From IMG/VR virus record IMGVR_UViG_3300036884_000676: a stretch of 64,000 bases of DNA, one strand, 5' to 3'. This DNA is from a virus (taxonomy: Duplodnaviria > Heunggongvirae > Uroviricota > Caudoviricetes). Shown here one piece after another: positions 4,452-45,963 of the stretch (position 1 is the first letter of the stretch; each line of letters opens with the position of its first letter). The notes below the pieces were generated by a model. It did not search any database. It was not told where the DNA came from and saw only the letters and a program-made list of their open reading frames with translations. The position numbers were made by a program, and so were the translations under genes.

Positions 4452-4514
4452 AGTATATTTAGATATTAAGTTTATTGTGTTGTTAATATAATAAAAGGAA
4501 TTGTAAATAAAAAA

Positions 4515-27295: not shown

Positions 27296-27308
27296 CAAAA
27301 AACTCACA

Positions 27309-29841: not shown

Positions 29842-29872
29842 TTGAAACTTCGTTCTAAAAATATATATAATT

Positions 29873-29956
29873 GGCTGGGTGGCGGAACTGGTAGACGCGC
29901 GGGACTTAAAATCCCGTTCCTGTATGGGAGTGTGGGTTCAATTCCCATCCCGGCTA
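29873..29956 (+). tRNA. tRNA-Leu(UAA), canonical class II
   Basis: Full cloverleaf, loop CU-UAA-AA, long variable arm. Confidence 0.93.
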
Positions 29957-29957
29957 C

Positions 29958-30068
29958 AATCTCTGACATGGCACCCACTCTAAGGGACCAATACGAAAAG
30001 TTTGGGAGCTATCTGGAACAAGGCCGGAAGGCAGAAGGGATGGTAGTGGGGAGCCTAAATCAGAGATT
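29958..30068 (+). ncRNA. SRP (4.5S)-like hairpin RNA
   Basis: Long rod closed by AAUCUCUGA/UCAGAGAUU, apex CAAG-GCC-GGAA-GGC-AGAA versus canonical CAGG-UCC-GGAA-GGA-AGCA. Confidence 0.45.
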
Positions 30069-30125
30069 TTTTAAATATTTTTATCAAATAATTTTTTTTA
30101 TTCAGAAATTTGACATAATTTTGTA

Positions 30126-30535
30126 GTCCCTTGTTTGATAAAGAGTGTGAGTCAAAGGAAACAATAAAGATTTTTAAGTCTTGAGTTCCGGCTGTAAAGG
30201 TAGCATACTCTTGTTCTTTGATTTAATGATGAAAAAGTTAGTTCTCGAAGATTAACGGCACCAGAAAGGTGTACGACACTCGTTGAGAGTGTACGATACT
30301 AAGAGGTGTATCAGAATCTTTGAAACGGGTATAAACCCGTTTGGGGAGGCGAGCAGCCGAACCAAATACAAACTCATATAACTCCGGCCCGCAAGTCGGA
30401 TGAAAATTGAGTATTCAGTTTTGCGGAACTGTTGGGATAGCTAACATAAATTTATTTGTTGTGGTGATAAGTCCAAATCGATATGATTTAGTTCAGGAAG
30501 TATCGGACTAATTTGGTGAAAAACAAACACAACAA
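30126..30535 (+). ncRNA. Large structured RNA candidate
   Basis: ORF-free, starts after a TAATTTTG promoter; contains a pseudoknot, a four-way junction and many hairpins. Confidence 0.6.
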
Positions 30536-30538
30536 CAC

Positions 30539-30600
30539 GGACAGGTAGCTTAAGAGAGAGCCGTATCAACGAGACGGTGGTTTAAACCCACCTCTGTCCA
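30539..30600 (+). ncRNA. 62-nt tRNA-like RNA with a truncated anticodon arm
   Basis: Acceptor GGACAGG/UCUGUCC-A, D-arm-like GCUU/GAGC, T arm GGUGG-UUUAAAC-CCACC, anticodon arm only CGU-AUCA-ACG. Confidence 0.6.
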
Positions 30601-30773
30601 CAATATAAAGGGTGCAAAACTTGTTTTAACAATGTTTTTCGGGACGGTTTAGTTAAATCGGTTATTCTTAACCAGCCCTTCTTAGAAAATTAGAAGAATC
30701 TGATACCCGATGGTGTATAGGATACCCGAAGTACAAGGGATGATCGGTGGCAACACAATCAACTTCTTTTAAC

Positions 30774-30904
30774 GAGTGTATTAGTGTAACGAAAGCACAG
30801 GCTGTTTGATGTTAGAGTAAGTTTTAGACGGCGGTCTTGGTCATTAGATTGACAAAACTGAAATATCGTAGGTCGGATGAGGGTTCAAATCCCTCATACA
30901 TTCC
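30774..30904 (+). ncRNA. tRNA-like RNA whose anticodon loop is replaced by a ~55-60-nt structured insert
   Basis: 8-bp acceptor GAGUGUAU/AUACAUUC, D arm GUG/CAC, T arm GAGGG-UUCAAAU-CCCUC; no assignable anticodon. Confidence 0.65.
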
Positions 30905-31080
30905 AAAAGGTGATGTGATGGAATAGTTTTTTCCATCCTGTTTTAAGGAGAGAACATTTGAGGATAAAGCGAGCCTACATCACAAACAGGATCACCAAAT
31001 AAGGTGAGGGAAACAAAGTAGAGTACCTTTTCTTCGGATTGAGGCCTTCGGGCCGAGGGAAATGACCTGTTCTCCCTCAA
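30905..31080 (+). ncRNA. Double-pseudoknot structured RNA candidate
   Basis: At least seven 6-8-bp complementary pairs, two of them crossing; ends at a U-run. Confidence 0.55.
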
Positions 31081-31176
31081 CTTTTTTAAAAAACGAAATT
31101 AAATTAAACTTTTTGAAAAAAAAGTTCTAAAATAGAAAAAAGAGACTTTATAAGTTAAATATATAATAAAAAAACA

Positions 31177-31249
31177 TATCCAGTAGGAACGTAAGTTCCG
31201 TTTTGGGACGCTCAGCGACCCAGAGGGGAAAACTCCCCGCAACTGGATA
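31177..31249 (+). promoter_or_regulatory. GC-rich four-way-junction RNA at the 5' end of the rplL-tRNA transcript
   Basis: UAUCCAGU/ACUGGAUA closing GGAAC-GUAA-GUUCC, UGGG..CCCA and GGGG-AAAA-CUCCCC arms. Confidence 0.55.
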
Positions 31250-31260
31250 AACTTTTTGAA

Positions 31261-31431
31261 ATGATTATGACACAGAACATCCAAAATATGATTATTAATC
31301 AGATACCCGGTAAAAATACCGATTGGATGAACTTTGTCTATAACGAATATAGAAAAAACCCAATCGGAAACGATTGGGTTTTTTTGTTTTATATGTCCAC
31401 CATAGTTTTTAACTGGTGTTCTTTGAAATAA
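31261..31431 (+). CDS. Met/Ile/Gln/Asn-rich leader peptide (MIMTQNIQNMIINQIPGK...)
   Basis: 14 of the first 15 codons encode M, I, Q or N; overlaps antiterminator and terminator. Confidence 0.75.
   Translation: MIMTQNIQNMIINQIPGKNTDWMNFVYNEYRKNPIGNDWVFLFYMSTIVFNWCSLK
31358..31385 (+). terminator. Attenuator terminator ACCCAAUCG-GAAA-CGAUUGGGU plus U-run
   Basis: Perfect 9-bp stem; competing strand CCGAUUGG at 31319-31326. Confidence 0.85.
31417..31428 (+). promoter_or_regulatory. boxA-like antitermination element TGTTCTTTGAAA; also 31878-31888 (+) and 45368-45378 (-)
   Basis: Matches rrn boxA consensus; found only at tRNA operons in this window. Confidence 0.55.
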
Positions 31432-31508
31432 TGATAAATCATATTCGGATTATAAGTTCAAAACTGATAATCTGAACATAAAATGTAAATAAAAATAAAT
31501 TAGAAACT

Positions 31509-31886
31509 ATGGAAGATTTAAAAAAATTAGCGGATGATCTGAGTAATCTCACCGTATTAGAGTGTTACCAGTTAGCTAAGATAATGAAAGAAGAATACGG
31601 AATAGAATCAAATACAAAAATTGTTGGTGTGAATGTATCACCAGTTCCAACTAAGGTAGTTGAAATTGAAAAAACAAGTTTTGATGTGATTCTAAAATCA
31701 GCAGGAACAACCAACAAACTTGGTGTTATCAAATCCATCAAAGAAATGACAGGACAAAGTTTATTGGAAATTAAGAATCTCGTTGATAATGCACCAGCGA
31801 AACTAAAAGAAAATGTAAGTAAAGATGAAGCTATGTCTTTACTGAATATTCTGAAAGAATTAGGTGCAGAAATTGAAGTTCTTTGA
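31509..31886 (+). CDS. rplL: Ribosomal protein bL12 (L7/L12)
   Basis: LSNLTVLE...LAK.MKEEYGI; EKTSFDVIL; KLGVIK; KE.VSKDEA...LKELGAEIEV. Confidence 0.95.
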   Translation: MEDLKKLADDLSNLTVLECYQLAKIMKEEYGIESNTKIVGVNVSPVPTKVVEIEKTSFDVILKSAGTTNKLGVIKSIKEMTGQSLLEIKNLVDNAPAKLKENVSKDEAMSLLNILKELGAEIEVL

Positions 31887-31899
31887 AAATAATAAAAAA

Positions 31900-32025
31900 T
31901 GTAGTAGCGAGTTTGAGTGTTACTTCGTAGCTCAACAGTCGAGCATCAATCAGTTAAATTGAAAGTTGTGGGTGCGATTCCCACCGAACCCGAAAGGGTA
32001 ATATCACTCAATGATTATCTCTACA
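31900..32025 (+). ncRNA. tRNA-Asn(GUU)-like domain whose acceptor is embedded in a long closed stem
   Basis: D, anticodon (UCAAU-CAGUUAA-AUUGA) and T arms present; 3' acceptor strand interrupted by a CCC-GAAA-GGG hairpin. Confidence 0.6.
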
Positions 32026-32035
32026 TTTTTTTAAT

Positions 32036-32113
32036 GGGTGTGTAGCTCAGTAGCGTTAGAGCGCGACACTGATAATGTCGAGGTCGTAGGTTCAAGTCCT
32101 ACCATACCCACCA
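32036..32113 (+). tRNA. tRNA-Ile(GAU), canonical, CCA encoded
   Basis: Full cloverleaf. Confidence 0.95.
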
Positions 32114-32123
32114 AAAATAACAC

Positions 32124-32205
32124 TGTGTCGTACGCAGCCGATCCTGATAAGATCGAGAACTTGTAACTGGTGTTGAAAATGTGGGTTCGAATCCCACCGG
32201 CACAA
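32124..32205 (+). tRNA. D-armless tRNA-Ile(GAU)-like RNA with long variable region
   Basis: Acceptor UGUGUCG/CGGCACA-A, anticodon arm CGAUC-CUGAUAA-GAUCG, T arm; only 8 nt where the D arm should be. Confidence 0.7.
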
Positions 32206-32214
32206 CAAAAATTT

Positions 32215-32286
32215 GGGTTGGTAGTACTAATGAAAAACGGCGGCCTGTTAAGCCGCGAGATGTGGGTTCAAGTCCCACCCGGCCCT
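32215..32286 (+). tRNA. tRNA-Asn(GUU) with a weak D arm lacking GG
   Basis: GCGGC-CUGUUAA-GCCGC; GGGUUGG/CCGGCCC. Confidence 0.8.
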
Positions 32287-32295
32287 CAATATTAT

Positions 32296-32369
32296 TCCTC
32301 AGTAGCTCAGCTGGTTAGAGCATTTGACTGTTAATCAAAGGGTCACAGGTCCAAATCCTGTCTGGGGAG
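32296..32369 (+). tRNA. tRNA-Asn(GUU); T-loop is UCCAAAU
   Basis: Full cloverleaf. Confidence 0.9.
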
Positions 32370-32375
32370 CAAAAT

Positions 32376-32451
32376 TCGGAATGTTTGTCTGTGATTGGGT
32401 GCACCACACAGATAATAAAGGAAAAATGTGGTTCAATTCCACCATTCCGAG
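32376..32451 (+). ncRNA. tRNA-like RNA with acceptor and T arm plus one long central hairpin; no anticodon assignable
   Basis: UCGGAAU/AUUCCGA, GUGG-UUCAAUU-CCAC, UCUGUG/CACAGA. Confidence 0.5.
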
Positions 32452-32459
32452 CAAAAATA

Positions 32460-32551
32460 GGGAGTGTAGCTGATTTGGTTTAGCGGCAGACCGTTAATCT
32501 GTGACTGAAAATATTGAAATAAAGTTGGTTCGACCCCATCCTCTCCCGCCA
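32460..32551 (+). tRNA. tRNA-Asn(GUU) with a 21-nt AU-rich variable region, CCA encoded
   Basis: GCAGA-CCGUUAA-UCUGU then GACUGAAAAUAUUGAAAUAAA. Confidence 0.8.
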
Positions 32552-32559
32552 GTACATAT

Positions 32560-32638
32560 TGTGGTGTATCCCCCATGTCTTATAAACATGCATTAAAAGG
32601 GTAATAGCGTGTATGTGGGTTCGAGTCCCACCACCACA
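32560..32638 (+). tRNA. D-armless tRNA-Ile(UAU)-like RNA with long variable region
   Basis: UGUGGUG/CACCACA-A, CAUGU-CUUAUAA-ACAUG, T arm; 6-nt D replacement UAUCCC. Confidence 0.7.
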
Positions 32639-32644
32639 ACAAAT

Positions 32645-32716
32645 GGTCGGGTAAGCTAACGGTTAAACTGGATGTCTTATACACATCTTTTAAGAGTTCG
32701 AATCTCTTCCTGACTA
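32645..32716 (+). tRNA. tRNA-Ile(UAU)
   Basis: Cloverleaf, GAUGU-CUUAUAC-ACAUC. Confidence 0.88.
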
Positions 32717-32721
32717 CAAAT

Positions 32722-32797
32722 GGCGAGATAGCTCAGACGGTTTTAGAGCGTCGGATTCATAACCCGGAGGTCGAGGGTTCAACTCCCTCTCTCGCTA
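32722..32797 (+). tRNA. tRNA-Met(CAU), elongator-like
   Basis: Cloverleaf, UCGGA-UUCAUAA-CCCGG. Confidence 0.9.
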
Positions 32798-32805
32798 CCC
32801 AAAAT

Positions 32806-32877
32806 AGTCCTATGGCGTAACGCGAAGCGTGACTCCCCTTGAAGGAGATGGTACTGGTTCGAATCCAGTTAGGACTG
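32806..32877 (+). tRNA. tRNA-Gln(UUG)
   Basis: AGUCCUA/UAGGACU-G; loop CCUUGAA. Confidence 0.82.
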
Positions 32878-32882
32878 CAAAT

Positions 32883-32968
32883 ATCAATGTGAACGGAATG
32901 GTTATCGTAGAGGTCTCATAAGCCTTTCAACTCGTTGAGTTGTGGTGGTTCGAATCCACTCATTGATA
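32883..32968 (+). tRNA. tRNA with CAU anticodon (Met or Ile2) and a long variable arm
   Basis: GAGGU-CUCAUAA-GCCUU plus CAACUC-GUU-GAGUUG arm. Confidence 0.8.
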
Positions 32969-32974
32969 CAAAAT

Positions 32975-33045
32975 AGTCCTGTGGTGTAACGGTAGCATGC
33001 GAGCCTTTGAAGCTTTGGGTACAGATTCGAATTCTGTCAGGACTG
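32975..33045 (+). tRNA. tRNA-Gln(UUG)
   Basis: Cloverleaf, loop CUUUGAA. Confidence 0.85.
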
Positions 33046-33051
33046 CAAAAT

Positions 33052-33124
33052 TGTTCTGTCGTATAATTGGCAGTACAGCACCCTCTGAAGGTGTATGGTG
33101 TAGGTTCGAGTCCTACTGGAACAG
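33052..33124 (+). tRNA. tRNA-Gln(CUG)
   Basis: GCACC-CUCUGAA-GGUGU. Confidence 0.9.
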
Positions 33125-33129
33125 CAAAT

Positions 33130-33201
33130 GGTTCTGTGGTGTAATGCGTAGCACGAGTGATTCTGAATCACTTGGTTAAGGTTCGAATCCTTACAGAACT
33201 A
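33130..33201 (+). tRNA. tRNA-Gln(CUG)
   Basis: AGUGA-UUCUGAA-UCACU. Confidence 0.9.
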
Positions 33202-33202
33202 C

Positions 33203-33517
33203 ATGAAAAAGGACATAAGAAAGACATTTCGTAAAGAGGTATTCACCAGAGATAAGTATACTTGTAAAGGATGTGATCAAAAACTTGATGAATCTGAATT
33301 GGATGCACATCACATCACTGACCGCAATGAAATGCCAAATGGTGGATATGTGAAAGAGAACGGTATAACTCTTTGTAAGAAAGATTGTCATATAAAAGCT
33401 GAAAAATTTCATATAACAGATGGAAAAGAATGGGTAGAGGGATTTCATCCAGATGACTTATACGAGAAGATTGATTCATCTAAGGGGAAGGCTGTTTTAA
33501 TGTCTCAAATTATTTAG
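33203..33517 (+). CDS. HNH endonuclease
   Basis: RDKYTCKGC...DAHHI...NGITLC...CH. Confidence 0.8.
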   Translation: MKKDIRKTFRKEVFTRDKYTCKGCDQKLDESELDAHHITDRNEMPNGGYVKENGITLCKKDCHIKAEKFHITDGKEWVEGFHPDDLYEKIDSSKGKAVLMSQII

Positions 33518-33584
33518 AATAATGAGAAATAATTTTTTTATTGATTTAATTTTTGTATCTTTGTATTGTATAAATTTAAATTAT

Positions 33585-33857
33585 ATGAAACAGTTTATTA
33601 AACCATCAACATTCAAAGAAAGAAAAAAAAGACCAGATAAAACGAAAGTTGATGAATTTATCGAAAAGTTCAACAAACTTATAAAAAAGGGAGAATTAGA
33701 GGCTAATGATGTACTCAATAAACTCCCATACTTAAATGAATCTGAGTTTAATCTGGCTGTTGCTATTGCTCGTGAAAATGGTTGGCAATTAACTCAATTT
33801 GAAGATAATTACAACACGACATCTTACCAACTTACAGAAATAAAACTTTCTGTTTAA
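33585..33857 (+). CDS. Hypothetical protein
   Basis: ORF after TATCTTTG promoter. Confidence 0.55.
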   Translation: MKQFIKPSTFKERKKRPDKTKVDEFIEKFNKLIKKGELEANDVLNKLPYLNESEFNLAVAIARENGWQLTQFEDNYNTTSYQLTEIKLSV

Positions 33858-33883
33858 AAAACAATATATAATCATTGTTGTAT

Positions 33884-33954
33884 TGTCCTATGGTGTAATG
33901 GCAACACGTGGGTTTTTGGAGCCTTAGTTCTAAGTTCGAATCTTAGTAGGACAA
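33884..33954 (+). tRNA. tRNA-Gln(UUG)
   Basis: UGUCCUA/UAGGACA; loop UUUUGGA. Confidence 0.85.
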
Positions 33955-34049
33955 CTCTATCACAATATACAAGAAGTCAACTACGATGGGAATCGAGGCC
34001 AACACGACAAGGATCAAACTTCGTTATAAAGATATTGTGGATTTTTTCT

Positions 34050-34075
34050 CCCAACCCGAAAGGGTTGGGTTTTTT
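34050..34075 (+). terminator. Intrinsic terminator CCCAACCC-GAAA-GGGUUGGG-U6
   Basis: Perfect 8-bp stem plus U-run. Confidence 0.85.
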
Positions 34076-34096
34076 ATTAAATTAATTATGATTAAC

Positions 34097-34312
34097 ATGA
34101 GTACAATTTTAGAACAGAGAATCAAGATGGATAACGATGTCTTAAAACGAATAAGACGCGAGATCTTAAAGAGTGCCAAGAAAGGTAATTTATATTACTA
34201 TTGGGAAGTTACTGGATTGAATGAATCCACTATCAGATATATTGTTGATATATTGGAATCTGAGGGAAAAATGTTTAAGAATAAAGGAAGTTGTAAGATT
34301 ATCAGGTGGTAA
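34097..34312 (+). CDS. Hypothetical protein (start MSTILEQ)
   Basis: The ORF-track start at 33986 runs through the terminator; internal ATG preferred. Confidence 0.55.
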   Translation: MSTILEQRIKMDNDVLKRIRREILKSAKKGNLYYYWEVTGLNESTIRYIVDILESEGKMFKNKGSCKIIRW

Positions 34313-35294
34313 TTGGTTGTTTATTACTATATTCATTTTTTAAAATATTCATCATATCTATATGATTATGAACAGTTTTTATCTGATAAATATGGTCTAA
34401 TCCGTATTCCTTTATTATATTATCTATTCTTTCCTTTTCCATTCCATGCGAACTATAATCACTTACTCTTCTTCCACCTTCTTCTTTAAAATATAAAATA
34501 CTTCCCTTTGGGATCTTGAATGATTTATCATTAACAGCCCATTCTCCCTCAGTTTCGAATGTTACACTATTTATTTCAAAGGCTTTTGAAAAAAGTTTCC
34601 TCAGTTCAGGAAATTCTAATTTGTCTTTTATGTAATCTTCAATTGGTTTCCAATTTTTCCAAGGATAATCCTTTGTCATTGGATAATCAACAACATATTC
34701 TTTTAGCATTTCCAAAATTATCTTGACAAAATCATCAAGATTATTTATATGTAATTGACCTAAATGATAAAGATCATCTATTTTTTCCGACAAAGTATAA
34801 TGAATATCCTGAATATAATTAATTATACCGTTTTTATCATGATAAGTATCAAATTTAAGTCCACCATCTCTTTTTTTCTTAATATTTCTATAAGCTAAAT
34901 TTTGAAACAATTTATCTAATGCCCCAGTGAAGGTTATATCTCTTTTACGGCCATTTTTATATTCGATAAATTGTGGATCATTCATTACTAATCTTCTCCA
35001 GTACTTAAAATTTTGTTTACAAAAGAAATCTGGATTGAAGTATTCTATGGGTTCTAAGTTTTTATTCAATTTCAAGACTTCAGAACCATTCATTATGACA
35101 AGCAACTCTCTGATGTCAAACCAGTGTTTTGCTATCCCATAATGGTCTGAAATTCCCTTTAAATTCAAAAATTCCATCCTCATTAAAGAATCCCACACTT
35201 TATCATCTCCAACTCTTAAAACTAAATAGAACCAATTAGGTTCATTCTTGGGAATCCATTTCTTTTCGAATATTTGAAAATCAGTAATCATCAA
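34302..35294 (-). CDS. Hypothetical protein with CTS-like N-terminus (MITDFQIFEK)
   Basis: TAATATATA upstream. Confidence 0.6.
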   Translation of the reverse strand: MMITDFQIFEKKWIPKNEPNWFYLVLRVGDDKVWDSLMRMEFLNLKGISDHYGIAKHWFDIRELLVIMNGSEVLKLNKNLEPIEYFNPDFFCKQNFKYWRRLVMNDPQFIEYKNGRKRDITFTGALDKLFQNLAYRNIKKKRDGGLKFDTYHDKNGIINYIQDIHYTLSEKIDDLYHLGQLHINNLDDFVKIILEMLKEYVVDYPMTKDYPWKNWKPIEDYIKDKLEFPELRKLFSKAFEINSVTFETEGEWAVNDKSFKIPKGSILYFKEEGGRRVSDYSSHGMEKERIDNIIKEYGLDHIYQIKTVHNHIDMMNILKNEYSNKQPITT

Positions 35295-35319
35295 TGTATA
35301 TATTATTTTTTATGGGCAC

Positions 35320-35342
35320 AAAAAAACCGTGAATTCACGGTT
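35320..35342 (-). terminator. Intrinsic terminator
   Basis: AACCGUG-AAUU-CACGGUU plus U-run on the minus strand. Confidence 0.75.
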
Positions 35343-35364
35343 TAATGTTATATTATATTAGAAG

Positions 35365-35994
35365 TTAAAAGTTAATACCAGTATAATCAATAAGATCTTT
35401 CATATGTTCATTCTTATGTCCTTCGGCGTGTTCCATAGCTTCAAAGATATCTGTCTTACTTCTTTCAGTTTTGAATCCATTTGTAATTATATCAACATAT
35501 TTAGGATCTGTCCAACTTTTAAATCCAGTTCCATTGATTGCATATGGGTTGAATCCCCAATGAGCTTTACACTCAACACCATCTTCAATTGTTGGTTGAA
35601 AAAAATCCAAAGATCCATAATTTCCAACAAAAAATCTTTTCTTTGTTAGTTTATCTTCAAACATCAATCTATATACATTCTTTAAGTCTATCCAATAATA
35701 TCCGTAGCAAATTCTATATCCGTATTTTTGGGTTTCGCTGAATTTATTTGGATTGAATGAAACATTTATCTTTTTTGGATTTTTTGCTTCTATTACTTTA
35801 TAGTAATTGTCGAATGTAATTCCAATCTCATGAAATTGACCATCTATTAATCCTGCATAAGATCTCCAACCCAGACCAAAAGCACAATCATACCAATCCC
35901 ATTCACGGGCAGGGATATTCTCTTTATAAAGTGGTTGAACGACTAACTTTCCTTTACGGATAGTCAGTCTTTCAATCGGATTTATTGTTTTCAT
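35365..35994 (-). CDS. Hypothetical protein (start MKTINP)
   Basis: ATGA coupling to upstream gene. Confidence 0.55.
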   Translation of the reverse strand: MKTINPIERLTIRKGKLVVQPLYKENIPAREWDWYDCAFGLGWRSYAGLIDGQFHEIGITFDNYYKVIEAKNPKKINVSFNPNKFSETQKYGYRICYGYYWIDLKNVYRLMFEDKLTKKRFFVGNYGSLDFFQPTIEDGVECKAHWGFNPYAINGTGFKSWTDPKYVDIITNGFKTERSKTDIFEAMEHAEGHKNEHMKDLIDYTGINF

Positions 35995-36176
35995 TTTCTG
36001 ACGGCTAAAAGAATGATACCGAAAATAATTATAATTACTGCAAAAGGAATCCACAATGGAGAAGTAACCCACCACCATGACCATGTTATAGCACCTGTTA
36101 ATTTAAGAATTAGGAATACGATGAACAATACTGTTCCGAAACTCATTCCACCACTTGCTGTTGAATTTTTTGACAT
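35991..36176 (-). CDS. Small two-helix membrane protein
   Basis: LFIVFLILKLTG.ITWSWWWVTSPLW, a common phage membrane family pattern. Confidence 0.7.
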   Translation of the reverse strand: MSKNSTASGGMSFGTVLFIVFLILKLTGAITWSWWWVTSPLWIPFAVIIIIFGIILLAVRK

Positions 36177-36187
36177 AATATTAATTT

Positions 36188-36694
36188 TTAATTGTTATTA
36201 CTTAATAATTGTTGATAATAATTATATTTGTATTTATCATAGTTATCTTTTGTCATAAAAAGTAGATATATTGTTCCTTTATTAATATTTTTGATTAACC
36301 AACGATATACAAATGTATTTCCTTTTGGTTCTTTCCATATATTATTTTTCTTGTCAAAATTATCAGCATCCGTAGAATTAATAAAGGCTCTTAGATATTT
36401 ATTGTCGTAATCTTCAATATAAAGTTTGAAAAGGTCAGTATTATACTCCATCATAATTATATAGAAGTAACAAAAATCACTCTTAGTAAAATAATATAAA
36501 TTTGTACTCGATTGAAATTTAATCACTATGGAATAATAACCACTATCTATTTTTTCGGGTTTACTAATAGAAATAGAAATTGGTTTCAATTGTTTCAGAA
36601 TGTTTTTTTTGGTTTCACCTATAAATGATTGTGAAAATACGAAATTGAACATTACAATACCAACGAGTGTTAAAAATAGTTTTTTCATTATCAT
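36188..36694 (-). CDS. Secreted hypothetical protein
   Basis: Signal peptide MKKLFLTLVGIVMFNFVFS. Confidence 0.55.
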   Translation of the reverse strand: MIMKKLFLTLVGIVMFNFVFSQSFIGETKKNILKQLKPISISISKPEKIDSGYYSIVIKFQSSTNLYYFTKSDFCYFYIIMMEYNTDLFKLYIEDYDNKYLRAFINSTDADNFDKKNNIWKEPKGNTFVYRWLIKNINKGTIYLLFMTKDNYDKYKYNYYQQLLSNNN

Positions 36695-36700
36695 TTGATT

Positions 36701-38178: not shown

Positions 38179-38182
38179 TATA

Positions 38183-38509: not shown

Positions 38510-38667
38510 TTTTGAATTTTCAGAAAATATAAAATATTGACATAACCCACAAACAATGCCACAATAGAAATACTGAAAACAACCAAAAAGGATGAAAGAA
38601 ATCACCATCTAAATATGATTTTTCACCCGGTATAATCATAAATCCACCAAAGATTGGTATCCAAAAT

Positions 38668-39465: not shown

Positions 39466-39521
39466 AATTATTTAGTTTATCAATTTTACTAAATGTATGA
39501 AAAATAAGTGGAATAAAAAAA

Positions 39522-39761
39522 TTAAATTTGGATAAATTTACCAGTAATCATCCCTTTGCGAATCCATCTCATTAGGGTAATAGATTTGAATGTTGGAGTA
39601 AAATATATATCTTTGTTCTCTTTCTCGTCAAGAGTATCAATTTGTAATTCATAATAAGTATCGTCTACCTTTATATGATAGTAAACCCATCCATTACAAA
39701 TATGAGATAATTTAGCTGTTGTTCCGTTTACTATTTCAGTTAGTGTGTGTTTATAGTCCAT
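39522..39761 (-). CDS. Hypothetical protein
   Basis: Coupled ORF. Confidence 0.55.
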   Translation of the reverse strand: MDYKHTLTEIVNGTTAKLSHICNGWVYYHIKVDDTYYELQIDTLDEKENKDIYFTPTFKSITLMRWIRKGMITGKFIQI

Positions 39762-40114
39762 TACTTTTTTGCTAATTTTTTGGTATATTTAATGATATTT
39801 TTTGTGTTGTTATTTAATCTTTTAATTTCGTCTGGAGACATTTTAATCAACATCTGTTCTGGTGTCCATTCGGTAATTCTCCTTATAACCTCGACATCTT
39901 CTACTATATAATTATATTTGGGTATTTCCTGTTTTAACATTTCTATTTGATGTTGAATATCTCGTTCCTTTTTAGCGTCATCACAATCACATTCCCAATA
40001 TTCATCATAATCATCCCATTTTTTCTTTTCTTCTTCACCACAATATAAGCAAATATGACTTATATAACCTATTTCATCGATGAATTTTCTTTCATTTTTT
40101 CTTAGCTTTCTCAT
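39761..40114 (-). CDS. Hypothetical Cys-containing protein
   Basis: CLYCG...CDC. Confidence 0.55.
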   Translation of the reverse strand: MRKLRKNERKFIDEIGYISHICLYCGEEEKKKWDDYDEYWECDCDDAKKERDIQHQIEMLKQEIPKYNYIVEDVEVIRRITEWTPEQMLIKMSPDEIKRLNNNTKNIIKYTKKLAKK

Positions 40115-40347
40115 AAATCTATGTTGTATTTCTCTTTGATTTCTTCTTTGGTATATAGGTGATAATTACAATCCTCATATTCTCCCCATTCCAATATACA
40201 ATGATAAAGTTGAGGTTCGCTCCATCCAGATTTAATAATCTTCAAACCAACTATATTTTGAGTATCAATATAAGATCTAACAAGTTGTTCAGAACTTTTT
40301 TCAAAATTGAGTTTTATTACATCTAATCCGTCATTCAATCCTGACAT
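40111..40347 (-). CDS. Hypothetical protein
   Basis: Coupled ORF. Confidence 0.5.
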   Translation of the reverse strand: MSGLNDGLDVIKLNFEKSSEQLVRSYIDTQNIVGLKIIKSGWSEPQLYHCILEWGEYEDCNYHLYTKEEIKEKYNIDL

Positions 40348-40535
40348 ACTTCATCCTCCTCTTCTCCATTATTAAATCCTTTGCCATAAAATGGGCCACT
40401 GGTTTCATCGGTTTCGATTTTTTCATCATCTTCTAAACCGTTATTAAAACCTTTACCATAAAAAGGACCAGATTGTTCATCTACTGGTTTCTTTTTCTTT
40501 TTAGGTTCATCTTCTTCGTATTTTCCATACCACAT
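40335..40535 (-). CDS. Acidic 66-aa peptide with duplicated SGPFYGKGFNNG
   Basis: Direct repeat at both protein and DNA level. Confidence 0.55.
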   Translation of the reverse strand: MWYGKYEEDEPKKKKKPVDEQSGPFYGKGFNNGLEDDEKIETDETSGPFYGKGFNNGEEEDEVCQD

Positions 40536-40615
40536 ACTATTTATATATGATTTTTCAAGGAAAGTTTTTTTATTTCACTATTTTTTCGTACTTTTGTAGT
40601 CTAATAAATTCTCTT

Positions 40616-40882
40616 ATGAAAATAGATAAGGTAATACATGGATTTACTTTCAGGTACAATGTATCTCTTATTCCGAATACGATGAAATGTAAGGTCTATT
40701 TCTTATCAAAGGATGAAGAAGTAATCGGAGAAATAAGCCCTGATTTCAAATATATTATCCTACCCGATACTTACACCAGCCCATATATAACTGATTATGG
40801 TAATGTGAAAGTCGGAAAATTAAAGATGAATAAGTTTCAACAGGCAGATGCTCGTGATTACAATTCCATAAATACAAAATGA
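40616..40882 (+). CDS. Hypothetical protein
   Basis: ORF after TACTTTTG promoter. Confidence 0.55.
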   Translation: MKIDKVIHGFTFRYNVSLIPNTMKCKVYFLSKDEEVIGEISPDFKYIILPDTYTSPYITDYGNVKVGKLKMNKFQQADARDYNSINTK

Positions 40883-41274
40883 AAATAAGTGATTTTTTAA
40901 AAGGACAAGGTGTTTTCAGTAATGAAATTAAAGCCAGATTCCAAAACGGACAAATCAAAATAAATGGGGAGTCCGTTAAGGAAGATATTGATTTGAATGT
41001 GAAAAAACAAATTCCAGATCCAAAAGTTGATGATATTCCATTTGAAGCTGGAGATTGGATTTTTCACAATTTAATAACTTCGTTATCAGAGGATAAAAAG
41101 AAAAAACTATTTCTCATTACTACCTTATTTGATATTGAAACTCTGTTCTCAGGTGGATGTCAGATTAACGACAAACCAGTTGAAGATATTTTACCAGAAT
41201 TGAATATTATGAAAGGTCATATATTTTTAAAAACTTCCAAAAAACAATGTTTCATCCTAAAACTTAACAAATAA
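40879..41274 (+). CDS. Hypothetical protein with S4-like N-terminus
   Basis: SDFLKGQGVFSNEIKARFQNGQIKING. Confidence 0.45.
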   Translation: MKISDFLKGQGVFSNEIKARFQNGQIKINGESVKEDIDLNVKKQIPDPKVDDIPFEAGDWIFHNLITSLSEDKKKKLFLITTLFDIETLFSGGCQINDKPVEDILPELNIMKGHIFLKTSKKQCFILKLNK

Positions 41275-41282
41275 AAACTAAT

Positions 41283-42272
41283 ATGACTAACAAAAAAGAT
41301 AAAAAAATAGGACTTGTATTTGGAAAGTTCATGCCCCTTCATAATGGACACATGGCCTTGATTCGATTTGCACAATCTCAGTGTGATAAACTATATGTAT
41401 TGTTATGTGAGGCTAATGATGAACCAATATGTGGAAAAATTCGATTAGGATGGTTATTGGACACATTCAAAGATGATTTGAACATAGAAGTGAGAATTAC
41501 TGATGTTCAATTACCATTAGTTCCCTATTCATCTAAATTAATAGCTAAAATGTGGGCCAAATTTTTCAAGGAAGAATTTCCTGATGTGAATATTCTATTT
41601 ACTTCGGAAAGATATGGTGATTTCACAGCAGAATTCATGGGTATAAAACATATACTTTTTGATAATGACAGAGAAGAAGTTTTTGTATCAGCCACCAAGA
41701 TTCGTAATCATCCACTCATTTATTGGGATTATATTCCCGACATTGTAAAACCGTACTTTGTTAAGAAAATTTGTATTTGTGGAACAGAATCAACGGGAAA
41801 AAGTATATTAACCGAAAAACTTGCTAAGAGATTTCATACTAACTTTGTTCCAGAATGGGGTAGAACTTTATGTCCGTCTACAACTGAATGTACCATAGAT
41901 ATAATTAAACAAATCGGTAAATCCCACGCTACTGACATTCACAATAAAATACAATTCTCACATAAATTTTTATTTTCAGATACCGACCTGAATACAACAA
42001 AAATGTATTCCTATTTCTTATTCAATGAAATACCGAAATTTGATGATTGGATTGAACAAGAAAATAAGTTCGATTTGTACATTTTTCTTGAAAACGATGC
42101 CCCTTTTATTCAGGATGGAACACGACTGACAAAAGAAAGAAGGGATGAACTACGAGATTACCATTACGACTACCTTATATCTCAAGGATGTAAAGTTGAA
42201 ATTGTAACTGGTAGTGATTGGGAAATCAGGTATGAAAAAGCTGTCAGAATAATTGAGGAAAATTTCGGATAA
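41283..42272 (+). CDS. nadR: NadR-type bifunctional NMN adenylyltransferase / ribosylnicotinamide kinase (no HTH)
   Basis: FGKFMPLHNGH; ISAT-like VSATKIR; Walker A GTESTGKS; SDTD; DGTR. Confidence 0.92.
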   Translation: MTNKKDKKIGLVFGKFMPLHNGHMALIRFAQSQCDKLYVLLCEANDEPICGKIRLGWLLDTFKDDLNIEVRITDVQLPLVPYSSKLIAKMWAKFFKEEFPDVNILFTSERYGDFTAEFMGIKHILFDNDREEVFVSATKIRNHPLIYWDYIPDIVKPYFVKKICICGTESTGKSILTEKLAKRFHTNFVPEWGRTLCPSTTECTIDIIKQIGKSHATDIHNKIQFSHKFLFSDTDLNTTKMYSYFLFNEIPKFDDWIEQENKFDLYIFLENDAPFIQDGTRLTKERRDELRDYHYDYLISQGCKVEIVTGSDWEIRYEKAVRIIEENFG

Positions 42273-42277
42273 GAATC

Positions 42278-42568
42278 ATGAGAAATTACAAATTAGAAAA
42301 ATTACAAGCCGGAGAAAGTTTCGTTACCAGTGAAAAAGGTAATTCCATGTCACCAATTATTAAGTCGGGACAAAAACATAAACTTGTTCCCGCCACTTGG
42401 AGAGATGTAGATGTAGATGATATAGTCTATTGTAAAGTCAAAGGAAACTTCTACACTCACCTTGTAAAAGCAAAAAATGAAGATAAGGGTTGCTTAATAG
42501 GTAACAACAAAGGTGGAGTTAACGGATGGACTAAACAAGTCTATGGTAAGGTTGTAAAAATCCTTTAA
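42278..42568 (+). CDS. S24/S26 peptidase-like small protein
   Basis: GNSMSPIIKSG...DIV....H.VK. Confidence 0.65.
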   Translation: MRNYKLEKLQAGESFVTSEKGNSMSPIIKSGQKHKLVPATWRDVDVDDIVYCKVKGNFYTHLVKAKNEDKGCLIGNNKGGVNGWTKQVYGKVVKIL

Positions 42569-43824
42569 ATATAAATATTCAGAATTTCATTCAGTTTAAT
42601 TTTGGTTTCCTCATTCAGTGATTTCCCCTTATTTTCATTATACAGAATCATAAAGGAACTTACCACTTTATTGAATTTGAAACTATCCGTATAACCAAAT
42701 ACAGTTTCCTTAAACTTTTCAATATCAACAGTTTCCTTACCAGTTCTTGACATCCATTCATCCCATTTTTTGAAGAATCTGATGATACCATTGATGTTCT
42801 GGTCTGACCATTGACCACCATCGAAATAATGTCCGATGAACATCAGATAAAACCTCAGAACCTTTGGATCATAGTTATCTGGATTAACAATATTTCCTTT
42901 ACTTTTGGCCATCTTGATTCCATTATTCAGAATCATTCCCTGATGCACCACTTTTTTAAAAGGTTCTTCCTCACTGATCATCCCAATATCATACAGGAAC
43001 ATATTAATAAAACGAGCATATATCAGGTGCATGCAAGCGTGTTCACTTCCCCCGATGTACAGATCAACTTGTTTATATTTATCTTTACTACACAGTTCAT
43101 TTTCGTTGTACGAATCACAATAACGGATAAAATAGAAACTACTATCTACGAAAGTATCCAGAGTATCAGTCTCACCTTCAATTGGAATAGGACATCCCCA
43201 ACTTCTTTGTCTACTGACACACCAATCATGTTGATTCTCCAGCCAATCTCTTTGAGAATTGATTGTTTTCTTTGGGTAATCAATCCAATCCAGATTTTTT
43301 ATCAGTCGGTCTTTATATTCGGTGATTTTAAAATACCATTGTTCCATTTGACGAATTTCAATGGTCGTATTACATCTATCACATTTACCATCTTTGACCT
43401 GTTCACGAGCCAGAACAGTTCCACAACTTGGACACCAATTTACTTCACCCCAAGCTTTGTAAGCCAGTCCATGTTCTTTCAGTTTGATAAATATCCATTG
43501 TGTCCACTTCTGGTAAGATGGATCTGAAGTAATTACTTTTTCTTCAAAAGAAGTGTCCATTCTTTCCATCTGTTTACGGAAATTCTCAATGTTTTCATAG
43601 GTAACTTCTCTGGGATCTCTATTGACTGATTTGGCGTAATTTTCAGCTGGAAGTCCAAAGGAATCATACCCAAACGGTTGAAAAACTTTAACTCCTTTAT
43701 ATCTTTGGTATCGACAATAACTGTCTACGATAGCGTAATTATAATAATGTCCGATGTGCAGTCCGTTTCCGCTCGGATAAGGAAACATGACAACCACCAT
43801 TTTTTCATTTTTTATGTCGTTCAT
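42565..43824 (-). CDS. leuS: Minimal leucyl-tRNA synthetase (419 aa)
   Basis: MFPYPSG..LHIGH, FGLPAEN, WCPSC..VLA.EQV, DWCVSRQRSWG, DTFVDSS, YIGG.EHA.MHL.YARF, KMAKSKGN; CP1, Leu-specific and C-terminal domains absent. Confidence 0.9.
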   Translation of the reverse strand: MNDIKNEKMVVVMFPYPSGNGLHIGHYYNYAIVDSYCRYQRYKGVKVFQPFGYDSFGLPAENYAKSVNRDPREVTYENIENFRKQMERMDTSFEEKVITSDPSYQKWTQWIFIKLKEHGLAYKAWGEVNWCPSCGTVLAREQVKDGKCDRCNTTIEIRQMEQWYFKITEYKDRLIKNLDWIDYPKKTINSQRDWLENQHDWCVSRQRSWGCPIPIEGETDTLDTFVDSSFYFIRYCDSYNENELCSKDKYKQVDLYIGGSEHACMHLIYARFINMFLYDIGMISEEEPFKKVVHQGMILNNGIKMAKSKGNIVNPDNYDPKVLRFYLMFIGHYFDGGQWSDQNINGIIRFFKKWDEWMSRTGKETVDIEKFKETVFGYTDSFKFNKVVSSFMILYNENKGKSLNEETKIKLNEILNIYI

Positions 43825-44584
43825 TGTCTTTTAATTTGTTTGAGAAATGTTCAATTGAGATATTATGTTTTTTGATTGTTTTATAAATAAGACTTCTATT
43901 ACTTTCGTTATATTCCATATTTAAATTTTTCATAATATCTCTATAAGATTTTGATTTAGAAATAATCCCTTTAAAAAGATTAATATCATAATCGAAATAA
44001 TCATAATTTCTTTTATTTGTGAAATCTTTCCAATCATCTTTTTCAATTATTTCCTTATCTTCGTATCTAAAATAACACCCACCAGCCGTCCCTTTCAATT
44101 GACAACTAAATTTAATTTGTTGTCTAAAAATACCTGTTTCTCTTTCAGCTCCTCGAAGGCTAATGAATTTTTTTAAAGGAGTAAAATTTTTATCATACAT
44201 TATAATTGATTTCTTATTTGGATTGGATATTTTCATTAGTTTTTTACTTTTATCAGAATGTTTTTTTCCTGTCCAATCTACACCATCTCCACCATCTGTA
44301 CTATTCTTCAATCTAAATCCCCAGCATTTAAATTGAGAAATCCAATATCTTTCTAATGAATCAATATTATTTTTATCACCGATATCAAGTATTTCTATTA
44401 TTGGTGAAAGATTTTTATTTTTGAGATATTTTAACCATTTATTTTTTCTTGTCCAAGGTTCTTGACGGATACTCCAATTTGACATATGTCCCCTCAATCT
44501 TTTTTCTAAATTTTTGGTCTTACCTACATATTTTATAATTTTATCTTCTGGGTCTGTTAATGTATAAATATAAAATTCCATCAT
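43805..44584 (-). mobile_element. Free-standing GIY-YIG homing endonuclease with NUMOD-like repeats
   Basis: YIYTL...YVGKT...R...H; ERYWI..F; N.TDGGDG; KHSDKSKKLM. Confidence 0.85.
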
Positions 44585-44633
44585 AGATTTTTATTTCTAT
44601 ATATAAAAATTTATGTGTAATGTTTCATAGTTG

Positions 44634-44707
44634 TAACCCCACCCGGACTTGAACCGAGATATTTAGTTTCTAAAACTAACGCCGCTAACCAATTAGGCCA
44701 TGGGGTC
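44634..44707 (-). tRNA. tRNA with Leu(UAG) anticodon but no variable arm
   Basis: UUAGU-UUUAGAA-ACUAA, 4-nt variable loop, A73. Confidence 0.85.
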
Positions 44708-44717
44708 ATTATTTTAG

Positions 44718-44791
44718 TAGTTCTGTTCGGACTTGAACCGAAATATTTGGTTTTTGAAACCAACGCCGCTAACCAATTAGGCCACAGAACC
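44718..44791 (-). tRNA. tRNA with Leu(CAA) anticodon but no variable arm
   Basis: UUGGU-UUCAAAA-ACCAA, 4-nt variable loop, A73. Confidence 0.85.
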
Positions 44792-44796
44792 TTTTG

Positions 44797-44881
44797 TATC
44801 GATGGTGGGACTCGAACCCACACCCTCGTAATGAGGAACGGCTTCTGAGGCCGTCGCGTCTACCAATTCCGCCACACCGAC
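44797..44881 (-). tRNA. tRNA-Leu(CAG), class II
   Basis: Canonical cloverleaf. Confidence 0.93.
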
Positions 44882-44933
44882 AAATTTCAAATATTTACCA
44901 GTTTTTTGAAAAACTGTTCAAAATTTGATTTTG

Positions 44934-45007
44934 TAGCACCTGTCGGATTCGAACCGACAAACTTGGATTTTAAGACCAATATGGTTGCTCTATTACATCA
45001 AGGTGCC
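44934..45007 (-). tRNA. tRNA with Leu(UAA) anticodon but no variable arm
   Basis: UUGGU-CUUAAAA-UCCAA, 4-nt variable loop, A73. Confidence 0.82.
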
Positions 45008-45012
45008 ATTTG

Positions 45013-45096
45013 TAGCCTCTGTGGGAATCGAACCCACACGGTCTTTCGACCACTGGATTTTGAGTCCAGAGCGTCTACCAATTCCGCCAAGAGGCC
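45013..45096 (-). tRNA. tRNA-Leu(CAA), class II
   Basis: Canonical cloverleaf. Confidence 0.94.
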
Positions 45097-45101
45097 ATTT
45101 G

Positions 45102-45186
45102 TGGGAGTTGATGGAGTTGCACCACCCGAGCCCTGAGGACAACAGATTTACAGTCTGCCCCGCTACTACTTACGGAATAAACTCCC
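45102..45186 (-). tRNA. tRNA-Tyr(GUA), class II
   Basis: CAGA-CUGUAAA-UCUG, long variable arm. Confidence 0.9.
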
Positions 45187-45190
45187 AAAG

Positions 45191-45275
45191 TGACCAAGGT
45201 GGGATTCGAACCCACACGGGCGTAAAGCCCAACGGATTTTAAGTCCGTCGCGTCTACCAGTTCCGCCACAAGGCC
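45191..45275 (-). tRNA. tRNA-Leu(UAA), class II, with two U-U mismatches in the acceptor stem
   Basis: Cloverleaf. Confidence 0.88.
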
Positions 45276-45283
45276 AATTTCAG

Positions 45284-45365
45284 TGTCCATAGGGGGACTC
45301 GAACCCCCACGCCTTTCGACAATAGTTTCTTAGGCTATCGCGTCTACCAGTTCCGCCATACGGAC
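45284..45365 (-). tRNA. tRNA-Leu(AAG), class II
   Basis: AUAGC-CUAAGAA-ACUAU; A34. Confidence 0.88.
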
Positions 45366-45382
45366 AATTTCAAAGAACTCAG

Positions 45383-45454
45383 TGGGAATAGAAGGATTCG
45401 AACCTACAAATCACGATTTTACAGACCGCTGAGCGACCACTGCTCAATATTCCC
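45383..45454 (-). tRNA. tRNA with Tyr(GUA) anticodon but short variable loop
   Basis: GCGGU-CUGUAAA-AUCGU, 5-nt variable loop. Confidence 0.82.
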
Positions 45455-45459
45455 GTTTG

Positions 45460-45532
45460 TGGAAGTACAAGGATTCGAACCTCGAATACACGGTGTTACA
45501 AGCCGCTGAGCGACCATCCGCTCACTACTTCC
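45460..45532 (-). tRNA. tRNA with Tyr(GUA) anticodon but short variable loop
   Basis: GCGGC-UUGUAAC-ACCGU, 5-nt variable loop. Confidence 0.82.
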
Positions 45533-45533
45533 T

Positions 45534-45689
45534 TGGTGGGGGTGGATGGAATTTCACACATCGGATGATAAGTTTACAGCTTACGAAGTAACTGTTTTAC
45601 ATCACTACAATTGATTGGCCTTCGATAAAGGAAACAGTCCAATTCAGAATCCTTATCAATCGAGATACTTTGGTACAGTAATCACCCCC
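45534..45689 (-). ncRNA. 156-nt tRNA-Tyr(GUA)-like RNA with a giant D-arm domain, CCA encoded
   Basis: GGGGGUG/CACCCCC-A-CCA, GUAAG-CUGUAAA-CUUAU, T-like arm; ~95 nt in place of the D arm. Confidence 0.7.
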
Positions 45690-45720
45690 TTTTATTTTCA
45701 ATATGTTTAAGAACATGCAA

Positions 45721-45752
45721 CAAAAAACCCATCACTTTTTCAAGGACGGGTC
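45721..45752 (-). terminator. Attenuator terminator ACCCGUC...GAUGGGU plus U-run
   Basis: 7-bp stem followed by U-run; competing strand GGAUGGGUU at 45799-45807. Confidence 0.85.
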
Positions 45753-45780
45753 TTTCTGATTCTATGATAATATTTAAAGT

Positions 45781-45867
45781 TTATCTTTCAGCAATACTAA
45801 CCCATCCTCGATTTTGATAGAGGTATAAATACAAATAATATAGGTTAATATTTACTCTGTTTTTCAT
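45781..45867 (-). CDS. 28-aa Leu/Tyr leader peptide MKNRVNINLYYLYLYLYQNRGWVSIAER
   Basis: Manual translation; nine consecutive Leu/Tyr codons; stops 28 nt before the terminator. Confidence 0.88.
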   Translation of the reverse strand: MKNRVNINLYYLYLYLYQNRGWVSIAER

Positions 45868-45963
45868 AACTTTTATTCTTTCTGAAAATTATATATTAAA
45901 TAATTTTAGTCTGTTTTTTCTATTTATACGACAAAGGTATGTAAAAGTTTTAAAATAAAAAAA

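Follow-up and report, generated by a model that had tools for sequence, protein, structure and literature searches.

The 64,000-nucleotide (nt) stretch analysed here, called the window below, is part of a 210,983-bp virus record of IMG/VR (IMGVR_UViG_3300036884_000676; Caudoviricetes) with a GC content of about 30%. Between positions 29873 and 45867 it carries two tRNA operons on opposite strands, D on the plus strand and E on the minus strand, each of which opens with a promoter-like box, a short leader open reading frame (ORF), an antiterminator segment and an intrinsic terminator (Table 1). The 211-kb record, a fragment of a huge phage, holds 67 tRNAs grouped in five arrays, A to E, which jointly cover all 20 amino acids, and the same cassette is common to all five, with a variant of the box at array C. 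A sequence-only reading of this DNA had described two tRNA operons sorted by amino acid, and both were recovered: array D together with the tRNA-Gln at 33884 consists solely of Ile, Asn, Met and Gln tRNAs, and array E of Tyr and Leu tRNAs. tRNAs were called with ARAGORN and Rfam, which agree on arrays D and E; the low-threshold intron mode of ARAGORN returned mostly false positives and was used only for extra calls within arrays. The starting point proposed earlier, 29873, needs correction, for the tRNA-Leu(UAA) found there is 5′ of the promoter box of operon D and stands outside the attenuated operon.

The leaders are composed of the amino acids of the arrays that they precede, as had been noticed for D and E. 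In leader D, Met, Ile, Gln or Asn occupies 14 of the 15 codons of the regulatory block, with every Ile, Gln and Asn codon represented, and the block of leader E, LYYLYLYLY, contains four different Leu codons and both Tyr codons. Outside the window, the block of leader A (RIGMDCGRDDR) precedes tRNAs for Asp, Leu, Arg, Gly, Cys and Met, that of leader B (PRPERPTEVTTIVVEETAFA) precedes Glu, Arg, Pro, Thr, Ala and Val, and that of leader C (KHSKHFSSSSKWF) precedes His, Phe, Ser, Lys and Trp with one doubtful Arg call. The blocks are 9 to 20 codons long and are drawn from the amino acids of their own arrays, the best 10-residue window of a leader holding 9-10 residues of its own set versus 2-6 for the other sets. 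Compared with the 2301 small ORFs of the 211-kb genome (ATG ORFs of 12-70 amino acids, aa), every leader ranks first or second for its own amino-acid set, D and E being each the single best, and only one of the 120 leader-to-array assignments, the true one, reaches the observed total. For Arg the match can be followed to the isoacceptors; leader A contains AGA three times, with Arg-UCU present in array A, and leader B contains CGA and AGG, with Arg-ACG and Arg-CCU present in array B. Moreover, leader B uses all four Thr codons, and leaders B, D and E draw on almost every synonymous codon. The blocks contain 47 distinct codons versus 41.3 expected from genome codon usage (P ~0.013), an excess that comes mostly from leader B and weakly from D and E, codon diversity in leaders A and C being not above expectation.

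A competing pair of RNA structures accompanies each leader. In all five, a segment that we call region 2 shows complementarity to the 5′ terminator arm; it lies 2-13 nt past the block, except in B, where it overlaps the last 3 nt of the block. The duplexes between region 2 and the terminator arm range from -13.4 to -19.9 kcal/mol, energies that 1000 shuffles failed to attain in the case of A, C, D and E; the terminators and competing antiterminators that the sequence-only reading had seen in D and E, which stand at the two ends of this range, are thus confirmed. The terminator hairpins of the five arrays have energies of -7.3 to -13.9 kcal/mol and are followed by U6-U7, the one in E being less canonical than the other four. 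In A, B, C and E, region 2 is located within the leader ORF, 6-23 nt ahead of the stop codon, and therefore a ribosome finishing the leader would cover it. When no ribosome is present, region 2 of A, B, D and E is predicted to fold back on the regulatory codons, 71-92% of its bases being paired. As modelled, the layout is that of the classical 1:2 / 2:3 / 3:4 attenuator. A separate peculiarity of leader B is that its codons 1-9 (genome 73662-73636), MLMINQILN, come solely from the sets of arrays D and E and stand ahead of its own block; a ribosome halted on these codons would be far from region 2 and would promote termination, which hints at a possible hierarchy between arrays.

Table 1. Features of tRNA operons D and E and their immediate surroundings; positions are those of the window.
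Feature	Position	Strand	Details and basis
tRNA-Leu(UAA), 85 nt, class II	29873..29957	+	ARAGORN, Rfam
Promoter-like box D, GAAAAAA-N2-GAC-N12-ATATATAA	31135..31166	+	pattern match
88-nt insert in the 5′ untranslated region	31167..31254	+	predicted three-way junction, -36.3 kcal/mol
Leader ORF D	31261..31431	+	regulatory block = codons 1-15 (31261-31305), MIMTQNIQNMIINQI
Region 2 of D (antiterminator strand)	31318..31327	+	pairs with terminator 5′ arm 31359-31367, -13.4 kcal/mol
Intrinsic terminator D, stem CCCAATCG/CGATTGGG with A/U extension, U7	31352..31385	+	terminator scan
rplL, bL12, 125 aa	31509..31886	+	PF00542 1e-20, PF16320, TIGR00855
tRNA array D	31924..33202	+	Ile(GAU), Asn(GUU) x3, Ile(UAU), Met(CAU) x2, Gln(UUG) x2, Gln(CUG) x2
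HNH endonuclease ORF, adjoining array D	33203..33517	+	PF01844, 2.8e-5
tRNA-Gln(UUG), last tRNA ahead of the operon-end terminator	33884..33955	+	ARAGORN, Rfam
Strong terminator-like hairpin with U-run	34050..34075	+	terminator scan
Predicted truncated bacterial-type leucyl-tRNA synthetase, 419 aa	42565..43824	-	TIGR00396
GIY-YIG endonuclease ORF, 259 aa, between array E and the synthetase gene	43805..44584	-	profile matches
tRNA array E	44633..45531	-	Tyr(GUA) x3: 71 nt (weak), 73 nt (class I shape), 86 nt (class II); Leu, class II, 83-86 nt: AAG, UAA, CAA, CAG; Leu, class-I-shaped, 75 nt: UAA, CAA, UAG
tRNA-like RNA, ~155 nt, between terminator E and the first tRNA	45534..45689	-	-38.9 kcal/mol, z -2.0
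Terminator hairpin with U6 of attenuator E	45722..45750	-	-10.2 kcal/mol; stem with G-U pair and bulge
Region 2 of E (antiterminator strand), within leader ORF	45798..45811	-	-19.9 kcal/mol duplex
Leader ORF E, 28 codons	45781..45867	-	regulatory block LYYLYLYLY at 45843-45817
Promoter-like box E, motif as in D	45889..45920	-	pattern match

The same arrangement was found in relatives, where the partition of the amino acids changes and the leaders change with it. The nearest database relatives of the 211-kb record are the 735-kb huge phages LR756501 and LR756503. LR756501 has 66 tRNA matches in several clusters, with cassettes as in the window genome and the amino acids partitioned differently: the leader YNDYCIND, where bL12 is again present, precedes Ile, Cys, Asp, Asn and Tyr tRNAs, IINMIQEQMQQIQ precedes Met, Gln, Ile and Glu, the Leu-rich LHINLLNSLCLL precedes Leu only, and TPAPAVAFRRGTGTGTGT precedes Arg, Thr, Val, Ala, Gly and Pro, an array whose leader also reads GTGTGTGT, with T/P/A/V/R. 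Tyr, Glu and Gly thus belong to other arrays than they do here, and have shifted likewise in the leaders. In LR756502 and LR745206, leaders rich in N/L/T/V/I stand before Asn/Leu/Val/Ile/Thr arrays. A scan of IMG/VR for the promoter box gave at least 129 sites, at least 29 of which have two or more tRNAs downstream; among the listed sites of this latter kind a leader ORF was present in 29/29 and a detected terminator in 28/29, with such examples as LSLHSSLSYLLSYH before Tyr/Ser/His/Leu and FKHISIFSHKWSSIFS before Trp/Ile/Lys/His/Phe.

Pairing statistics rest on 25 non-redundant leader-array pairs among the IMG/VR matches listed. The mean leader score was 8.3 for the own array versus 4.2 for other arrays, and none of 20,000 pairing shuffles reached the observed match sum. 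In the same pairs, region 2 binds its own terminator arm with a mean of -12.4 kcal/mol versus -7.1 +/- 2.7 kcal/mol across loci, and therefore the antiterminator co-varies with its own terminator. Region 2 stands ahead of the leader stop in the 25 pairs, overlapping the stop in one, and the gap, with A, B, C and E counted in, is 0-35 nt. The sequence-only reading had proposed looking for matching leaders upstream of the arrays of relatives, and the correspondence was found in LR756501, LR756502, LR745206 and the listed IMG/VR pairs.

Cellular genomes searched with the same motif gave 122 sites, only 5 of which have tRNAs downstream. Three of these five, on two contigs, have matching leaders and terminators; the other two are ordinary bacterial tRNA operons matched by chance, with neither a terminator nor a matching leader. 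The 86-kb contig L204, binned as Cellvibrionaceae, carries tandem attenuators (3395-5400), YQLQQLLSLQ before Gln/Leu and then YEYYYEE before Tyr/Glu, and therefore one cluster can be divided into separately gated sub-operons. The matching cellular contigs are probably phage DNA inside metagenome bins.

The promoter-like box, GAAAAAA-N2-GAC-N12-ATATATA(A), was found in the 211-kb genome, with strict and loose patterns, only before leaders A, B, D and E. In LR756501 it precedes the tRNA arrays and also the gene of the major head protein (phrog_138, 9e-23) and other leaderless protein genes, for which reason the idea of an array-specific promoter was rejected. Judged by this distribution, the box would represent a general phage promoter class, probably late or strong, to which the attenuators would add tRNA-specific control. 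Another conserved box, GTTCTTTrAmAT(n)TTGAAAT, lies 3′ of all five attenuator terminators at a distance of 3-35 nt (e.g. 31419-31432 and, on the minus strand, 45713-45700); it recurs inside the arrays, with 12 of its 31 genome matches, and stands also 3′ of LR756501 terminators. It may serve in processing, in protein binding or as an internal promoter.

From the anatomy and statistics described above, together with the covariation among phages and the alternative pairings that are predicted, we consider it likely that the cassettes are ribosome-mediated transcription attenuators of the trp/his/ilv type, which gate the phage tRNA operons and supply tRNAs according to demand. The core of the sequence-only reading, that decoding of the leader gates the matching tRNA operon, is thus supported by all five arrays and by the covariation in relatives. 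Transcription would begin at the phage promoter box, and a ribosome would translate the leader as RNA polymerase advances. When the block is decoded fast, the ribosome would move onto region 2, the terminator hairpin would form and transcription would end before the array. When charged tRNA for the block codons is scarce, the ribosome would stall upstream of region 2, which would then pair with the 5′ arm of the terminator, and the polymerase would read into the tRNA genes. Translational load, decay of host tRNAs or host defence might each bring about the scarcity. Since the products of each operon are the tRNAs whose shortage caused the stall, every operon would form a closed negative-feedback loop, and the five loops of this genome would serve all 20 amino acids. 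By analogy with known attenuators, we infer translation of the leaders, a conditional termination and a response in this direction.

Besides tRNAs, both operons carry genes of the translation apparatus. The rplL gene that had been noticed in one operon is confirmed by Pfam and TIGR00855 and lies inside operon D; its product scores 93.9 bits versus the TIGR00855 cut-off of 84.4 and has both the N-terminal dimerisation and the C-terminal domains (PF16320, PF00542). It is found between attenuator and array in this genome, in the related locus L013 (85% identical) and in LR756501 (64%). As for operon E, the earlier description of an array leading into a minimal leucyl-tRNA synthetase (LeuRS) stands for the LeuRS core and fails for the direct lead, as the GIY-YIG ORF lies between them. 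LeuRS is the closest family of the 419-aa protein (TIGR00396, 9e-114, 381 bits, under the full-length cut-off of 548), which keeps the HIGH motif and a KMSKS-like motif. Its alignment with LeuRS of T. thermophilus (1h3n) passes directly from residue 227 to 418 and extends to about residue 690 of 878; therefore the CP1 editing domain is missing, the C-terminal domains being absent as well, and the protein appears from its sequence to be a truncated relative of bacterial LeuRS and not a full-length enzyme. The terminator scan found no terminator-like site between array E and the LeuRS gene, and their co-transcription is plausible. The order array, GIY-YIG, LeuRS is kept in LR756501, where the Leu-only array is directly followed by a GIY-YIG gene with 74% identity and a LeuRS-like gene of 520 aa with 45-48% identity, and LR745206 has a 425-aa ortholog that is 74% identical. 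Given that operons D and E carry bL12 and GIY-YIG with the editing-less LeuRS, respectively, these genes would follow the same signal as the tRNAs.

The coexistence of canonical and structurally altered tRNAs, also part of the earlier description, is clear in both arrays. In array E, class II Leu and Tyr tRNAs (83-86 nt) lie beside class-I-shaped ones (73-75 nt), all of them with A73, and array D includes a Met tRNA with a long variable arm (Met-87) and an Asn tRNA with a long variable region and an AT-rich 20-nt insertion (Asn-92). The short Leu tRNAs score 51.7-58.8 bits with the tRNA model versus 50.1-58.7 bits for canonical Leu tRNAs. Perhaps all these parts belong to one codon-resolved homeostat, a possibility that we advance only tentatively. 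It would join the attenuated operons, the promoter class of the head gene, the co-regulation of bL12 and LeuRS, an orthogonal pair of LeuRS and class-I-shaped tRNA-Leu, and altered tRNAs that are invisible to the host. The decoding set would then be complete and largely host-independent, with a handful of attenuated operons splitting the 20 amino acids among them; the LeuRS, which lacks the domains for holding the long variable arm, would be specific for class-I-shaped tRNA-Leu in its charging, and the architecture-swapped tRNAs would escape recognition by host enzymes or nucleases.

The same altered tRNAs could be read in terms of host defence, as the sequence-only reading stressed, with identical attenuators and a different trigger. 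Anticodon nucleases or other tRNA-depleting systems would destroy specific host tRNAs, the leaders would sense the depletion, and the architecture-swapped tRNAs would be nuclease-resistant replacements or decoys. Phage tRNAs can indeed offset tRNA-targeting defences, the class-I-shaped Leu and Tyr and the long-arm Met and Asn tRNAs are found beside canonical ones, and the short Leu tRNAs match the canonical ones in tRNA-model score. Even so, we regard this trigger as rather unlikely: no sequence feature points to a nuclease, all 20 amino acids are served, which goes beyond what such nucleases usually target (Lys, Arg and others), and the box shared with the major head gene of LR756501 fits a supply for bulk translation.

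A further reading, in which the leaders would signal that the host is starved of amino acids or under general translation stress and the arrays would be stress-induced cargo without tRNA feedback, is improbable. A stalled ribosome cannot distinguish a missing tRNA from an uncharged one, and the design is that of amino-acid operons. Extra tRNA, however, is useless when the amino acid itself is lacking, and the match of leaders to Arg isoacceptor codons and their covariation with the partition would be pointless for a general signal.

Several observations speak against the demand-driven attenuators proposed above. Phage DNA was found in peat metagenomes by a search of sequencing runs, and the matches of that search were DNA only, with no RNA run containing the phage; three metatranscriptomes from the same peat study, as well as an unlabelled run, were compared with 29800-46000 and gave only short matches to conserved parts of tRNAs from other organisms. 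The duplex energy of leader B was reached by 57 of 1000 shuffles, a modest gain, leader C is predicted to have only a weak 1:2 pairing (33% of region 2), and the hairpin of E (45750-45722) was unlisted by a simple terminator scanner. A phage polymerase, if it uses the promoter box, might ignore the terminators or be uncoupled from ribosomes, and the GTTCTTTrAmAT box, if a promoter, could bypass the attenuators. Owing to shared descent among many of the relatives, the 25 pairs cannot be counted as that many independent events, and it is the several distinct amino-acid partitions that form the informative part of the set. Finally, leader D differs from its counterparts. It has CCC at 31306-31308 where L013 has CC, and because of this one extra C its ORF runs through the terminator to 31431, unlike in relatives; the TGA at 31328-31330 falls into another frame here, but in L013 it closes the leader at the border of region 2, and the leader of the bL12 array in LR756501 ends at a TGA in region 2 too. 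A closely coupled ribosome on this run-on ORF could suppress termination whatever the tRNA supply.

In the contig of a relative, too, one base is missing at 31306, and therefore either the D copy in this genome may be leaky or the assembly may be wrong. If the extra C is real, the logic of operon D, and of this operon only, could be lost or reversed, with an unstalled ribosome melting the hairpin and read-through taking place whenever translation is active. In agreement with such a reversal, a ribosome that follows close behind the polymerase prevents terminator hairpins, according to PMC5021804. We hold it to be very improbable, as the other parts of attenuator D are intact and a stalled ribosome would still free region 2. 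The extra C could be an assembly error, yet 97-100% of the words sampled from the stretch are present in the DNA runs. Lastly, AT-rich DNA is rich in small ORFs, the 2301 of this genome included, but that the leaders and hairpins are chance occurrences or ordinary terminators of upstream genes with no link to the arrays is scarcely conceivable, in view of the leader ranks, the shuffles of the 25 listed pairs, the covariation of antiterminator and terminator, and the ordinary bacterial tRNA operons that carry the same motif and show no such features.

Other features surround the attenuators. In operon D, the 88-nt insert ahead of the leader is a single copy, with none elsewhere in the genome or in the fetched loci; a relative's contig skips exactly this interval, and L013 and LR756501 are also without it. 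Weaker tRNA-like pieces lie within array D at 31924-31988 and 32560-32639, and the hairpin at 34050-34075 is the probable end of the operon. Endonuclease ORFs, HNH and GIY-YIG, lie beside the two arrays, and phage tRNA regions with endonuclease genes inside them are known from T4. In operon E, the RNA at 45534-45689 is predicted to fold into several arms and an acceptor-like stem of 7 bp, has its ACCA 3′ end encoded, and matches no Rfam family; arrays A, B and C also open with oversized tRNA-like pieces akin to it. Between tRNA-Leu(UAA) and promoter box D, about 1.2 kb (29958-31134) have no ORF of at least 100 codons and a GC content above the surroundings. Within this segment, where no other Rfam family was found, a tRNA match of 129 nt at 30775-30903 (30.5 bits) includes a large insertion; relaxed ARAGORN calls it an intron-containing tRNA with a UUA anticodon, the anticodon call being doubtful. 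Upstream of it, a 710-aa ORF (27222-29354, plus strand) with TonB-dependent receptor barrel and plug domains is located within the phage genome. Rfam scans at the gathering threshold over the whole window and at E<=1 over both operons returned only tRNAs and sub-threshold noise. At 8726-8943, no RNase P family scored above the Rfam gathering cut-off in the whole-window scan, which a much reduced form could escape. In LR756501, two adjacent tRNAs with CUA anticodons, i.e. amber suppressors, are located at 690585-690737 (locus L012, 1586-1739), with no leader upstream within the fetched piece, and suggest TAG read-through or recoding in that phage.

If the leaders gate the arrays as proposed, huge phages would meter each group of isoacceptors against decoding speed and not plainly express their tRNAs, and the leaders would be natural reporters of the tRNAs that run short during infection. 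They would also be compact, modular sensors of the decoding rate of chosen codons, which may serve synthetic biology, and the truncated LeuRS beside tRNA-Leu genes that lack the variable arm would be a candidate natural orthogonal pair.

Phage tRNAs are usually explained by codon-usage matching, by compensation for host tRNA decay and by escape from tRNA-targeting defence. Huge phages with up to 67 tRNAs, aminoacyl-tRNA synthetase genes and ribosomal protein L7/L12 have been reported (Al-Shayeb et al. 2020, PMC7162821), in a text from which the words "leader" and "attenuat" are absent. The arrays described here resemble the tRNA clusters of T4, T5 and huge phages in their large tRNA sets with synthetase and L7/L12 genes, and differ from them in the codon-matched leaders that gate the arrays. 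The sequence-only reading knew of no tRNA operon controlled in this way; likewise, a full-text search of literature readable outside subscription, papers on huge phages included, gave no account of leader-peptide control of tRNA genes. As far as this literature shows, it would be the first leader-peptide attenuation of tRNA genes, taking a textbook mechanism to a new class of targets and to viruses.

The closest design is that of the enterobacterial leaders, particularly the multivalent ones (ilvGMEDA for Ile/Leu/Val and thr for Thr/Ile; also trpL, hisL, leuL and pheL). Both have a short leader in which codons for several amino acids are strung together, alternative hairpins (2:3 and 3:4, with a 1:2 pairing that is predicted for the phage and weak in leader C) and an intrinsic terminator. 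A finishing ribosome can cover region 2, in this genome with the exception of leader D, and the phage operons too would respond to the supply of charged tRNA. The enterobacterial targets are biosynthetic enzymes, whereas here they are phage-encoded tRNA genes with bL12 and LeuRS; the phage leaders contain up to 6-7 amino acids each, the set of leaders partitions all 20, and the product of the operon would itself relieve the stall. The phage leaders belong to none of the leader families of Rfam, the best being Thr_leader with 24.3 bits versus a cut-off of 55 bits, and the scans of the window and of operons D and E found no T-box, known leader family or L10 leader. In pheST of E. coli, the pheM leader senses one amino acid and controls phenylalanyl-tRNA synthetase only. 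Its target belongs to the translation apparatus, as does the LeuRS gene behind the Leu/Tyr leader of operon E, but tRNAs are the main cargo here. T-box riboswitches (RF00230) are alike in that terminators are read through upon a specific uncharged tRNA and in that the genes are related to aminoacylation; they bind the uncharged tRNA directly without translation, whereas the leaders here are ORFs, and RF00230 had no match at the gathering threshold in the window or at E<=1 in the operons. The mechanism is of a known kind, and what is new is the tRNA target, the codon-matched leaders for many amino acids and the partition that extends over the whole genome.

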